From sequence record SRR22947725_1805: a stretch of DNA of 64,000 bases; one strand, written 5' to 3'. This document shows, in pieces, positions 35,943 through 39,400 of the stretch. A program made the position numbers and the translations under genes. Under the pieces are notes generated by a model. The model searched no databases. It saw only the letters and a program-made list of their open reading frames with translations, and was not told the origin of the DNA. How positions within the stretch are numbered: position 1 is the stretch's first letter; every line of letters starts with the position of its first letter.

Positions 35943-36671
35943 ATGGCGCTGGCAACACTGTGGGATTCCTCGTTCGTGGGGGAGAAGCACGGCGAAGGGA
36001 ACCCGGAGATCATCGCCCTGCATGGCTGGGGCCGAACGGGCGCTGATTTCTCCCGCGTCTTAGCGGGAACCAACGCTTTGGCCCTTCACCTGCCAGGCTT
36101 TGGCTCCGCACCCCCGCCGCCTGAGCCGTGGTCAACCAGTGAGTATGCCGATCATCTTGCTCGGGCACTAGAGGGACACCCACCCGTAGTTCTGGTGGGA
36201 CACTCCTTTGGCGGACGGGTGGCTCTGCGCCTGGCTGCGCGACACCCCGCGTGCGTGAAGGCGCTCGTTCTCGCGGGAGTGCCTTTTCTGGCTCGATCAG
36301 GTGGGGCAAAACCGCACCTCGCTTTTCGTTTGGGAAAACGGGCCAGAAAACTTGGCCTCATCTCTGAAGCGCGAATGGAGGGGCTTCGCAATAGCTATGG
36401 ATCCACTGACTACCGGGCGGCTCAGGGCGTGATGAGGGGTGTCTTGGTAAAAGCAATTGGCGAAGATTACTTTGTTGACGCCGCCATCGTTCGCGCCCCC
36501 GTCACGCTGGTGTGGGGGGAAAACGATGGGCCTGCGCCACTGTTGGGGGCGCAGAAATCCCTGGAATATTTCCCCCAGGCCACCCTGCGCGTGGTACCCG
36601 GGGCGGGACACCTCCTGGAAGGTAACCTCGAGGAAGCGTTAGCCCAAGCACTCCGAGACCTCGCCGACTAA
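35943..36671 (+). CDS. alpha/beta fold hydrolase (esterase-type)
   Basis: LHGW oxyanion loop, LPGFG, GHSFGG nucleophile, WGEND acid, GAGH catalytic His. Confidence 0.9.
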   Translation: MALATLWDSSFVGEKHGEGNPEIIALHGWGRTGADFSRVLAGTNALALHLPGFGSAPPPPEPWSTSEYADHLARALEGHPPVVLVGHSFGGRVALRLAARHPACVKALVLAGVPFLARSGGAKPHLAFRLGKRARKLGLISEARMEGLRNSYGSTDYRAAQGVMRGVLVKAIGEDYFVDAAIVRAPVTLVWGENDGPAPLLGAQKSLEYFPQATLRVVPGAGHLLEGNLEEALAQALRDLAD

Positions 36672-36679
36672 GGACACCG

Positions 36680-38239
36680 ATGCCCGAGTTAGACACCCTG
36701 GTCTTGTGGGCGGCTGTCGGCTCGGGGTTACTCGTCGCTGCGGCGCAGAATCTGAAGTGGCTTCGGGTCGCCCAGCGCGTCCATTATTTACCCCGCGAGG
36801 TCGCGCGGGTCGAGCGCTTGTGGTTTGATCGCAGACCCCTGGCCGCCCTCTGGTGGACACTCGCTGCAGCCCTCGCGCTGATCTCTGTGCAAGGACCCGC
36901 GTGGTGGGGGATGCCGTGGTTGGCGTGGGGCGCAGTGCTTGCACCGGTGATGATTCTTCCCACGCCCTGGAAACTGTCTTTCAAGGGAACCACCAGCCCG
37001 CTGGCGTGGACCCCTCGATCCCGCCGCGCCTACGGTGGCATTCTGCTGGCACAGGTGTTGGTTGGCCTGCCTGCTGTGTGGGTACTGGGACCCGCCGGAG
37101 CACTGATTCCTCTGCTGTTTACCGCAAATATTGCTGATCTCGTCCTCGGTGGTCTCTGGTATCTCGAGCGATCACTGTCGATGAAGTTCGTGAAGGACGC
37201 CCAGGCAAAACTGAAGAAGGTCAACCCCACGGTGGTAGCTATCACCGGCTCCTATGGAAAAACGTCGACCAAAGGCTATGTCGCCCAGATTGTCGCCGGC
37301 TCTCACCAGGTGGTGGCTTCACCTGCGAGCTTCAACAACATGATGGGTTTGTCGAAAACCATCAACGAACACTTGGTTCCCGGCACCTCGGTCTTTGTTG
37401 CCGAAATGGGCATGAATGCCCCGGGGCGCATTCGAGAGCTTGCCAACTGGTTTCCACCGGATATTTCCGCCATCACCGTCGTTGGCGAAGCCCACATGGA
37501 ACGTTTGGGGTCTAAAGAAGCAATTTTCCGCGCAAAGGCAGAAATCACCGAGCGTGCTCCCATCGTCGTGTTACCCATAGATCAGCCCGAGCTGCGTTCC
37601 CTCGCGGATAAGTGCGAGCGGGCGGGCAAAAGGGTGATCAGGGTGAGCGCCCAGGGCAAGAAAGCCGATGTGGTGGTGGATGTGGATTTGGGGACCCTCC
37701 GCTATGGACCCAAGGCGAATGTTGTTCCTCTTGATATCCCCTCCTTTGGACATGCGGTGAATATTGCCGTAGCGCTGGGGATTGCCCTTGCCCTTGACGT
37801 TGCTGAAGACCAGGCCAAAGCACGGGTTGCCGGCTTGCCTGTTGCCGCGCACCGCGCGGAAGTGGCCGAAAGCAGTGAGGGTGTGCTGATTATCGATGAC
37901 ACCTATAACTCAAACCCCACTGGCGCATCTCACGCTGTCAGCTCGGGCGCCGAGGCTGCGAAAAAACGCAAAGGCCCCTTTATTACTGTTACACCCGGGA
38001 TGGTGGAGTTGGGGCCTGTGCAGTTTAGGCGTAACCGCGAGCTTGCCGAAGCTGTGATCGCCGCCAATGGCACACTAATGATTGTGGGGCGCACCAACAC
38101 AAAGGCCCTACTGGCGGGGGCAAAAAATACGGCACAAGTGTTTGCGACTCGCCACGAGGCCGTCACCGCTGCCCTCCTGGCAGCGGGAGAGCGGGGCGTT
38201 ATCCTCTATGAGAACGACCTGCCCGATCACTACCCCTAA
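36680..38239 (+). CDS. murF: MurF-like Mur ligase with an N-terminal multi-pass membrane domain
   Basis: ITGSYGKTSTK P-loop, SFNN..G, EMG, H...G......K, IDDTYNSNP, TPGMVELG, ENDLPD; first ~165 aa contain several hydrophobic helices. Confidence 0.8.
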   Translation: MPELDTLVLWAAVGSGLLVAAAQNLKWLRVAQRVHYLPREVARVERLWFDRRPLAALWWTLAAALALISVQGPAWWGMPWLAWGAVLAPVMILPTPWKLSFKGTTSPLAWTPRSRRAYGGILLAQVLVGLPAVWVLGPAGALIPLLFTANIADLVLGGLWYLERSLSMKFVKDAQAKLKKVNPTVVAITGSYGKTSTKGYVAQIVAGSHQVVASPASFNNMMGLSKTINEHLVPGTSVFVAEMGMNAPGRIRELANWFPPDISAITVVGEAHMERLGSKEAIFRAKAEITERAPIVVLPIDQPELRSLADKCERAGKRVIRVSAQGKKADVVVDVDLGTLRYGPKANVVPLDIPSFGHAVNIAVALGIALALDVAEDQAKARVAGLPVAAHRAEVAESSEGVLIIDDTYNSNPTGASHAVSSGAEAAKKRKGPFITVTPGMVELGPVQFRRNRELAEAVIAANGTLMIVGRTNTKALLAGAKNTAQVFATRHEAVTAALLAAGERGVILYENDLPDHYP

Positions 38240-38260: not shown

Positions 38261-39400
38261 ATGACCAACGCTTATGCCGTCGTATTTGGGGGGCCAAGCC
38301 CCGAGCATGAAATTTCCATCCTCACCGGGCTTCAGGCTGCGAGGGTATTGCACGAGGGTGGGCATGAACCGCTGTCGATCTATATCGCTCCCGGTGGCGC
38401 CTGGTATCAGGTCCCCCCGCAATCCGAGGCGAAAGACTTTCTGACCGGAGCTCCCGCGGGATCCAAAGAGCTCGAGGTGGTGCTCTCCGGTAGTCCAGGT
38501 ATTTATCCCAAAAAAGGAATGGGCAAAAAGGCCCTCGATATTGACTCAGCACTGTTGTGTTTTCACGGTGGCATAGGCGAAGGTGGTGCCGGGGCTTCGG
38601 TATTTTCGATGCTGGGAATTCCCGCGACCGGTTCGAGTGTGTTCGCCGGTGCTGTGGGAATGGACAAGTTAGCGTTTGGCGGCCTGATGATGGCGGCCAG
38701 CATCGCCACGCTGAGGAGGGAAGCACTCTCCCCAGAGCGTGACCCCTCGTTTCCTGGCCCCTACATCGTCAAACCCCGTTTTGGCGGCTCCTCCATTGGT
38801 ATCGAAATCGTCGAAGACATCACCACTGCGCGGACACTGTGCAAAACCTCCCCTCACCTTGCGGCAGGCGCCGTGCTTGAGCCTTATCGGCCGGGACTTG
38901 TCGATTTGAATATTTCTTTTCGGACCTATCCCCAGTTGGAGCTGACCGCACTGGAGCGCCCCTTGCGCCCGGAAGGCGAATCCGGCGTGTATTCCTACCA
39001 GGAAAAGTATTTGGCGGGCGGGAATTCGGGTGCCGGATTGACCCATGCGCCGAGAGAATTTCCCGCCCTTGCCCCCGAGGACATCCACCAGAAAGCCCGG
39101 GAGCTCGCCACCGCCGTGGCGGAGGTCACCCGGTTGAGTGGGATCGTTCGGGTCGATTTGCTGTGGGATGAACAAACGGGAGACGTCTTCGTCAACGAGG
39201 TGAACACTATTCCTGGGGCGCTTTCCCTCTACCTGTGGGCCCCCACCCACAAAGCGCTGACGGTGATTGTTGATGCCCTGACCGAAGCCATTGAGAGGCC
39301 TGTCATCTTCCCGCAGAGTGGGTTTGGTCAAGGCGTTGCGCTGCGGGCAGCCGGGGGTATTGCCGCAAAACTTGTCGGGCTGGGCGGGCCTCAGGCCTAG
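38261..39400 (+). CDS. ddl: divergent D-alanine--D-alanine ligase family ATP-grasp enzyme
   Basis: FGGPSPEHEIS, HG..GE.G, MDK, VKP..GGSSIG, YSY.EKY, RVD, NEVNTIPG; occupies the ddl locus. Confidence 0.82.
   Translation: MTNAYAVVFGGPSPEHEISILTGLQAARVLHEGGHEPLSIYIAPGGAWYQVPPQSEAKDFLTGAPAGSKELEVVLSGSPGIYPKKGMGKKALDIDSALLCFHGGIGEGGAGASVFSMLGIPATGSSVFAGAVGMDKLAFGGLMMAASIATLRREALSPERDPSFPGPYIVKPRFGGSSIGIEIVEDITTARTLCKTSPHLAAGAVLEPYRPGLVDLNISFRTYPQLELTALERPLRPEGESGVYSYQEKYLAGGNSGAGLTHAPREFPALAPEDIHQKARELATAVAEVTRLSGIVRVDLLWDEQTGDVFVNEVNTIPGALSLYLWAPTHKALTVIVDALTEAIERPVIFPQSGFGQGVALRAAGGIAAKLVGLGGPQA

Follow-up and report, generated by a model that had tools for sequence, protein, structure and literature searches.

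Textbooks and drug discovery treat MurF, the D-Ala-D-Ala-adding ligase of cell-wall synthesis, as a soluble cytoplasmic enzyme. The window studied here, a 64,000-nucleotide stretch of sequence record SRR22947725_1805, encodes on its plus strand (36680..38239) a 519-residue MurF-type ligase that is membrane-embedded according to domain matches, hydropathy, an AlphaFold2 (AF2) model and fold matches. Its gene stands between those of an alpha/beta hydrolase and a Ddl-family D-Ala-D-Ala ligase, with which it forms a trio. The question raised by this locus is whether such a protein can be the MurF of its host and, if so, on which substrate it acts and what its membrane domain is for. We consider it probable that the ligase is the host's housekeeping, D-Ala-D-Ala-adding MurF, a member of a distinct and widespread subfamily in which a five-helix membrane domain replaces domain 1, the part that binds uridine diphosphate (UDP). 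The membrane MurF is a real enzyme of ordinary function and of an unusual, barely studied but already known form, which here, without the nucleotide-binding domain, has replaced the soluble one. What is new is the stepwise decay of canonical murF in five related genomes.

A membrane-embedded MurF serves whole lineages and, by published report, probably Helicobacter and Campylobacter too. At stake are whether its substrate is UDP- or lipid-linked, which task its invariant membrane-face residues perform, and why an active serine hydrolase constantly accompanies it. The answers would show whether the order of the last cytoplasmic cell-wall steps is universal, and whether inhibitors of MurF's UDP pocket can act on such organisms.

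A membrane domain in place of domain 1

Pfam matches in the ligase are limited to residues 188-334 and 391-509. The region ahead of them, residues 1-183 (36680..37228, plus strand), has no Pfam or NCBIfam match and is a membrane domain according to hydropathy and the helices of the AF2 model. Five hydrophobic stretches lie at about residues 4-25, 54-72, 78-96, 117-140 and 141-162 (Kyte-Doolittle), the last two also being delimited as 117-136 and 138-162, and a linker helix (163-181) follows the last of them. The initial annotation had proposed that a Trp-rich, multi-pass membrane domain replaces domain 1 in a MurF-like ligase, and had called for a transmembrane (TM) prediction and a structure model. 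All the hydrophobic segments it quoted were found in the translation (LVLWAAVGSGLLVAAA at residues 7-22, LAALWWTLAAALALISV at 54-70, WLAWGAVLAPVMIL at 80-93 and ILLAQVLVGLPAVWVLGPAGALIPLLF at 121-147), as were the motifs WLRVAQRVHY (27-36), PLAWTPRSRR (107-116) and ITGSYGKTSTK (188-198), and 13 Trp lie within the first 170 residues versus 1 within the other 349. The AF2 model of the whole ligase, built with 58 homologues (predicted local distance difference test, pLDDT, 88.6; predicted template modelling score, pTM, 0.82), is helical throughout residues 4-181 and then continues as a standard Mur-ligase body. Together with the five hydrophobic stretches, this bears out the proposal.

The modelled helices of the domain span residues 4-33, 40-51, 54-76, 79-90, 112-146 and 148-181, and the domain modelled by itself reaches a pLDDT of 88.3. 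Two loops rich in Arg/Lys fit an N-out/C-in topology with a cytoplasmic ligase: loop 1 at residues 26-53 (36755..36838, plus strand), with eight Arg/Lys and the sequence KWLRVAQRVHY, and loop 2 at residues 97-116 (36968..37027, plus strand), with five Arg/Lys and the sequence PLAWTPRSRR. P161-x-E163 (37160..37168, plus strand) lies where the last membrane helix ends on the cytoplasmic side.

The residues of this domain that are invariant across phyla, as judged in alignments A2 (95 sequences) and A4 (26 sequences, several phyla), are Q32, Y36, W48, T111, R113 and E163, which lie on the predicted cytoplasmic face. Q32 and Y36 stand in loop 1 just past helix 1, and a short amphipathic segment of the same loop carries W48. 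T111 and R113 stand in loop 2 just ahead of helix 4, within a P-L-x-W-T-x-R-x-x-R/K stretch, and E163 where helix 5 ends; in the membrane helices proper, the sequence varies across the family. Given that a plain anchor has no need of six invariant polar residues, the membrane domain would do more than anchor, and the conserved set, as far as alignments can tell, points to a substrate-holding or partner-docking site.

When the fold of the domain was compared with 48,161 chains (VIA-align), the top match was 8hf2 at Z 5.3, the one chain at Z>=5, with zero at Z>=8; a Z of 5.3 carries no meaning for helical bundles, and fold novelty is not implied. Nor is it implied by the search of the domain profile against PDB sequences, in which the best E was 0.18. 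In the ESM Atlas, residues 1-182 matched unnamed clusters with a top score of 0.90, among them a Campylobacterota cluster at 0.90, which serves as a lead only.

The domain is evidently translated. A Shine-Dalgarno sequence, AAGGA (36670..36674, plus strand), was read directly 5 nucleotides (nt) upstream of the ATG at 36680, the stop of the upstream hydrolase gene lies 8 nt before that ATG, and homologues with as little as 27% identity still show protein-level conservation of the N-terminal region. This conservation and the Shine-Dalgarno sequence together argue that the start is not mis-called.

Catalytic core and kinship to canonical MurF

The central, ATP-binding domain (residues 188-334; 37241..37681, plus strand) matches Pfam PF08245 (Mur_ligase_M) with E 2.7e-27 and holds the P-loop TGSYGKT (residues 189-195; 37244-37264, plus strand) as well as E242 and H272. 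The C-terminal domain (residues 391-509; 37850..38206, plus strand) matches PF02875 (Mur_ligase_C) with E 8.2e-9 and carries DDTYNSNP and TPGMVELG. The best NCBIfam model is murF (TIGR01143, 183.8 bits), with murD, murC and murE at 50 bits or less each, and its alignment to the ligase contains nothing before profile position 65, i.e., N-terminal domain 1 is absent. Among solved structures in the PDB, the best Foldseek match is MurF 4qf5 (E 8e-18), followed by 3zl8, 4cvm and 1gg4, and nine of the top ten entries are named MurF.

The same kinship is seen in conserved residues. The P-loop, K198, N219, E242, H272, K286, E288 and D301 are common to 24 membrane and 14 canonical MurFs, and so are N361, R392, D407, N410, P413 and M441-x-E443-L444-G445; the membrane MurFs thus have the DDxYNxNP and MurF-type M-x-ELG motifs as canonical MurFs do. 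In a tree of 42 rows, composed of the window protein, 23 of 80 loci taken for taxonomic spread, 15 canonical candidates (one of which proved to be MurE) and three MurE, the 24 membrane MurFs form one clade with a Shimodaira-Hasegawa-like approximate likelihood ratio test (SH-aLRT) value of 99, the 14 canonical actinobacterial MurFs are its sister and MurE lies outside, this being a quick search without bootstrap. The MurF-type identity given in the initial annotation is upheld by the structure matches and by the tree, which groups the ligase with MurF and not with MurE.

Two other kinds of ligase were considered and rejected. Neither the PgsB/CapB-type ligases nor cyanophycin synthetase is among the matches at E<=0.01, and there are no PgsC/PgsA neighbours and no fused ATP-grasp domain. 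MurT was set aside given that no MurT model is among the 12 NCBIfam matches, that the window ligase lies between a hydrolase and a Ddl, and that the nearest relative of the window, genome G001, has a separate MurT-like gene.

The last eleven residues of the ligase, LYENDLPDHYP (38204..38236, plus strand), form an acidic tail that is invariant across phyla in membrane MurFs and missing in canonical MurF, and which is a candidate docking motif. Within the tree, the membrane MurFs of loci L082, L086 and L102 cluster on very short branches (0.16-0.25, SH-aLRT 100). These come from a Bacteroides metagenome-assembled genome (MAG), a Porphyromonadaceae MAG and Senegalimassilia (Coriobacteriia), with loci of 50-52% GC, a closeness that suggests either transfer of the gene between gut bacteria or faulty binning of the MAGs.

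Loss of the canonical gene

Genome G001 (1.3 Mb, 97% complete) has 56% shared k-mers and carries the locus at 95-100% protein identity. Its best murF match is the membrane type. The other Mur-type ligases in it are MurC, MurE, a MurD fragment, MurD2 (beside MurL), a MurT-like protein and FolC, and its dcw cluster, FtsI-MurE-[446 bp]-MraY-...-FtsW-MurG-MurC-FtsQ-FtsZ, contains no murF.

In a sample of the family Microbacteriaceae comprising 61 genomes from 60 genera, a canonical MurF exceeded the cut-off in 56, while the other five (G001, G030, G029, G044 and G053) hold the membrane type only, all their TIGR01143 matches being of the kind that spans profile positions 65-402. The hydrolase of the module (profile, E<=1e-45) was found in exactly the same five of the 61, in a scan that in some large genomes scored only 44 first-look candidates, and the module's Ddl (E<=1e-20) in the same five plus one 32%-identity match in G061. 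The gene order murA-plsC-gpsA-hydrolase-MurF-Ddl is identical in all five; DUF3515, thiL, rsmD and recG were matched after Ddl in the four genomes whose stretch extended past it, and none of them was matched in G029.

A truncated relic of canonical murF persists between murE and mraY in each of the five genomes. In residues of a 469-residue canonical MurF, it covers 215-468 in G053 (54% identity), 227-464 in G044 (43% identity), 364-449 in G029 (57% identity), 350-451 in G001 (36% identity) and 334-453 in G030 (30% identity), and the P-loop part is gone from all five. Given these relics, the membrane form took over the job from canonical MurF. The initial annotation had taken the ligase for the cell's own MurF and not for a side activity, which agrees with its being the sole MurF in the five family genomes, G001 among them, and with the relics.

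A further observation concerns murD. In G001, a MurL epimerase adjoins a MurD2-type ligase (L004, C2:62618-66325; 318 and 278 bits), and the murD of the dcw cluster is only a 344-residue piece that covers MurD model positions 1-157 (L012:4540-5571); the mraY-ftsW gap of G030 (L122:6819-7989) has no MurD match. It looks as if a second dcw Mur ligase, murD, has been displaced in the same genus.

Distribution and conserved neighbourhood

A search of 1.84 billion cluster representatives yielded more than 100 clusters (50% identity) that are full-length including the membrane domain, down to ~32% identity, and a scan of one genome per species confirmed at least 594 relatives. Locus counts rest on the best 80 of these. 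They belong to Microbacteriaceae (Gulosibacter, Pseudolysinimonas), Propionibacteriaceae, Nocardioides sp. YR527, Frankiales, many Acidimicrobiia and Egibacteraceae and, at 27-33% identity, to Bacteroidales, Clostridia, Poribacteria, Rhodothermales, Senegalimassilia and one alphaproteobacterial MAG; trio loci span Actinomycetota, Bacteroidota, Bacillota, Poribacteria and others. A hydrolase homologue lies directly upstream of the membrane MurF in almost all of the 80 loci, and most of them have a Ddl homologue next to the ligase. In all three Poribacteria loci the order is FtsI-MurE-hydrolase-MurF-Ddl-MraY-MurD-FtsW, i.e., the trio occupies the murF slot of the dcw cluster. In every family member whose N-terminus is on the contig, the P-loop is preceded by 165-227 residues that are largely hydrophobic.

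A phylum sample of 301 genomes with a completeness of at least 90% contained the membrane family (E<=1e-90) in 30 genomes of eight families, one of these families with 21 of 21, and in none of the remaining 271. As related genomes do not count as independent, the figures are to be read as counts and not as statistics; they include genomes flagged as unpublished, namely G316, G332, G360, G427, G474, G516 and G526 in the 21-genome family and G379, G397 and G451 elsewhere in the sample. The best TIGR01143 matches in the 30 range from E 8.5e-46 to 7.5e-74, well below canonical values. When 29 of the 30 were rescanned, each gave one family-profile match at E<=1e-30, which argues that no second MurF is present there; the canonical MurFs of other genomes match the membrane-family profile only over positions ~165-498. 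Outside the sample, the Poribacteria genome G311 and the Rhodothermales genome G315 hold the membrane type only.

Two observations stand apart. In the family with 21 of 21 (f61; L104, G566:C3:1842000-1858000, and 20 others), the profile matches only from about position 85 on, so that the first helices are divergent or different, and hydrolase and Ddl still adjoin the membrane MurF. The Porphyromonadaceae genome G312 (L086) has a membrane MurF (238 bits) together with an 855-residue MurF-alanine racemase fusion (207 bits), and no separate canonical MurF at E<=1e-20; the available part of a paper on the MurF'-Alr chimera (PMC13726279) makes no mention of membrane MurFs.

The hydrolase and Ddl partners

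The first gene of the trio (35943..36671, plus strand) encodes a 242-residue alpha/beta hydrolase that matches Pfam Abhydrolase_6 and Abhydrolase_1. Its triad consists of Ser88 (GHSFGG), Asp195 and His223 and is joined by an HGW oxyanion motif; triad and motif are invariant in the 26-sequence cross-phylum alignment A3, in which the lid residues S154, D156 and Y157 are likewise kept, and the triad is at least 94% conserved in 33 sequences. This invariance suggests that the protein is an active serine hydrolase. Its Pfam matches are generic, and its profile found among PDB sequences only generic esterases, meta-cleavage-product hydrolases and PHB depolymerase. A missing alanine racemase was considered as the reason for the hydrolase and dropped, given that Alr is present in all five module-bearing genomes tested.

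The third gene (38261..39400, plus strand) encodes a Ddl-family D-Ala-D-Ala ligase of 379 residues (Pfam Dala_Dala_lig_N and Dala_Dala_lig_C), which scores 146.9 bits against TIGR01205, under its cut-off of 245.65, and has the catalytic set conserved, including the omega-loop pair K249-Y250. It is the sole Ddl in three of five genomes checked (G311, G462 and G566). A second, short Ddl (314-320 residues, 211-232 bits) occurs distant from the module in the Pontimonas-like genomes G001 (C62:16120-17040, L007) and G030 (C1:135147-136064), and a short Ddl adjoins the trio in other Actinomycetes loci (L030, L034, L045, L051, L085 and L097). The earlier view that the ligase acts with the neighbouring Ddl and hydrolase is probably right.

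Substrate and alternative explanations

In the explanation we favour, a single operon would supply a catalytically intact serine alpha/beta hydrolase, the membrane MurF and Ddl. Ddl would make D-Ala-D-Ala. Held at the membrane, the catalytic domains in the cytoplasm would use ATP to ligate this dipeptide to the tripeptide on N-acetylmuramic acid (MurNAc), so that the product would form beside MraY. In the structures of MurF and MurE, and for MurC-F in general, domain 1 is the UDP-binding part; its task, to hold the substrate at its sugar-diphosphate end, would here most likely fall to Q32, Y36, W48, T111, R113 and E163, unless these dock a partner. That the hydrolase trims or proofreads precursors is a guess.

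Given that the MurF-like gene is the only one and that the canonical copy has decayed, we infer that D-Ala-D-Ala is added to UDP-MurNAc-tripeptide. We lean towards this substrate because several lineages have the module in the place of canonical MurF, next to an ordinary MraY, an exchange that comes about most easily with the same substrate and product as before; such a clean replacement agrees slightly better with a UDP-linked reaction at the membrane. Less likely is a lipid-linked tripeptide, which would suit an enzyme that has lost its UDP-binding domain and has invariant polar residues at the membrane face. It is one of two mechanisms put forward in the initial annotation, the other being that the enzyme may pass pentapeptide directly to MraY.

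Several results weigh against a plain housekeeping MurF. The absence of a canonical MurF is established in the nearest relative, G001, and not in the window's own genome. The match to TIGR01143 covers positions 65-402 of 418 and falls short of the model's cut-off of 288.6 bits, and the N-terminal motif D-[STG]-R, which all 15 canonical MurF/MurE N-termini have, is found in 1 of 26 membrane MurFs. Nocardioides sp. YR527 (L034, L117) has a canonical MurF (421 bits) and a membrane type (195 bits) with the full trio, so the one type does not strictly exclude the other, and their functions might differ. The hydrolase that always accompanies the membrane MurF is a further such point. Finally, and against a UDP-linked substrate in particular, every Mur-family ligase that we know to be without domain 1 (MurT, FolC, PgsB) takes a non-UDP substrate. 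As an observation in its own right, the coexistence in YR527 may precede loss of the canonical gene or may signal that the two enzymes are not equivalent.

The alternative that survives best, though we hold it to be rather improbable, is a reordered pathway, in which MraY first moves phospho-MurNAc-tripeptide to undecaprenyl phosphate and the membrane MurF then completes the tripeptide of lipid I/II. The membrane domain would bind the C55-PP-MurNAc end, and the hydrolase might trim or proofread precursors. Such an enzyme would suit the complete loss of domain 1, with D-[STG]-R missing in 25 of 26 family members. It would also suit a membrane domain whose only invariant residues, R113 and a basic T-x-R-x-x-R/K stretch among them, are polar and lie on the cytoplasmic side of the membrane, where the head group of a lipid diphosphate would sit. 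MurT, also without domain 1, acts on lipid II, and coexistence with canonical MurF in YR527 would suit an enzyme of lipid-level completion or repair. However, at least five Microbacteriaceae genomes with a replaced MurF keep an ordinary dcw MraY, 54-70% identical to that of G001, which would need to use the tripeptide efficiently, whereas MraY enzymes prefer the pentapeptide. A partner protein or the diphosphate of UDP could just as well be what the membrane-face residues hold, and no polyprenyl-binding structural relative of the domain was found (best Z 5.3). It is correspondingly doubtful that the membrane domain serves to bind a lipid carrier and that the stem peptide is completed on undecaprenyl-diphosphate-linked MurNAc-tripeptide (lipid I or II), with a coupled hydrolase policing the peptide end of the precursor. 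If this were true, MraY would act before MurF in the many lineages with this enzyme alone, among them Acidimicrobiia, Poribacteria, part of Microbacteriaceae and probably Helicobacter and Campylobacter.

It is very unlikely that the trio is a specialised paralogue that builds an altered stem-peptide end (D-Ala-D-X, van-type with a dedicated MurF) or the cross-bridge of the B-type wall of Microbacteriaceae. Ligase and Ddl both score under the curated cut-offs of their families, G001 and G030 retain the second, shorter Ddl elsewhere, and a dedicated murF beside van genes is described for Actinobacteria in PMC8698665, all of which a paralogue would explain. Set against this, no other MurF was found in module-carrying genomes (five of the family sample, G001 included, and the 29 rescanned), and canonical murF is visibly decaying in five of five. 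The trio also occurs in phyla without B-type walls and, in Poribacteria, in the murF slot. Its Ddl, the sole one in three of the five genomes checked, has the K-Y omega-loop pair typical of D-Ala-D-Ala ligases, and the locus has no vanH/vanX-like neighbours.

The least credible alternative, to which we give almost no weight, is an annotation artefact with the true start near Met168, a soluble protein and an upstream hydrophobic frame that is untranslated or a separate small gene: there is an internal Met at residue 168, and short proteins consisting of the membrane domain only exist in the protein collection, but the N-terminal region is conserved across phyla with its invariant residues and always in frame with the ligase, the ATG at 36680 has a Shine-Dalgarno sequence ahead of it, the packing of the domain in the AF2 model is confident, and the 120 matches listed for the domain are for the most part short proteins, probably cut genes, on contigs no longer than a few kb.

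Comparison with known systems

The housekeeping MurF proposed here resembles canonical MurF (EC 6.3.2.10; TIGR01143; PDB 1gg4, 4qf5, 3zl8 and 4cvm) in its central and C-terminal domains, its P-loop and its Mg/ATP residues; the two are sisters in the tree, and the membrane form fills the same role as the only MurF. They differ in that the membrane form lacks domain 1 and D-[STG]-R, has a 183-residue five-helix membrane domain instead, and ends in an extra invariant LYENDLPDxY tail. In this lineage, moreover, its gene is not part of the dcw cluster, and it always stands beside a serine hydrolase.

MurT acts on membrane-bound lipid II, has a different C-terminal domain and is partnered by GatD. 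As part of the MurT/GatD lipid II amidotransferase (PDB 9sq9), it is a Mur-family ligase without domain 1, like the window ligase, among whose fold matches it appears at rank 32 (E 3e-10), much weaker than MurF. MurT is soluble, whereas the window ligase is embedded in the membrane.

In the literature, no description was found of a membrane MurF in Actinobacteria (Microbacteriaceae, Acidimicrobiia) or of the trio, the only remarks being those on Helicobacter pylori, and no usable measured UDP-MurNAc-peptide pools were found for Helicobacter. When a Poribacteria member was used to query the protein collection, no Campylobacterota were among the 120 matches listed, all of which are at least 63% identical; the three that are named are Poribacteria.

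The closest described counterparts are nevertheless found in Campylobacterota. According to PMC9448923, which credits Blair et al. 2018, H. pylori MurF (HP0740) is an inner-membrane protein with four N-terminal TM domains. It is presented as an essential precursor enzyme within the Csd5 complex in PMC9507126, which cites Blair et al. 2018 as well, and its gene is given as 1485 bp in PMC6501431, a size like that of the window ligase gene. H. pylori MurF has been studied within the Csd5/CcmA cell-shape complex, which the actinobacterium of the window is not known to have. In Campylobacter jejuni, the alpha/beta-hydrolase-fold protein Cj0796c stands beside the MurF Cj0795c, with the Ddl Cj0798c nearby, as described in PMC5530802; by this published description, it is the same trio as in the window. 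Although the comparison is one of descriptions only, a shared ancestry of the membrane domains of H. pylori and C. jejuni with that of the window ligase is likely.

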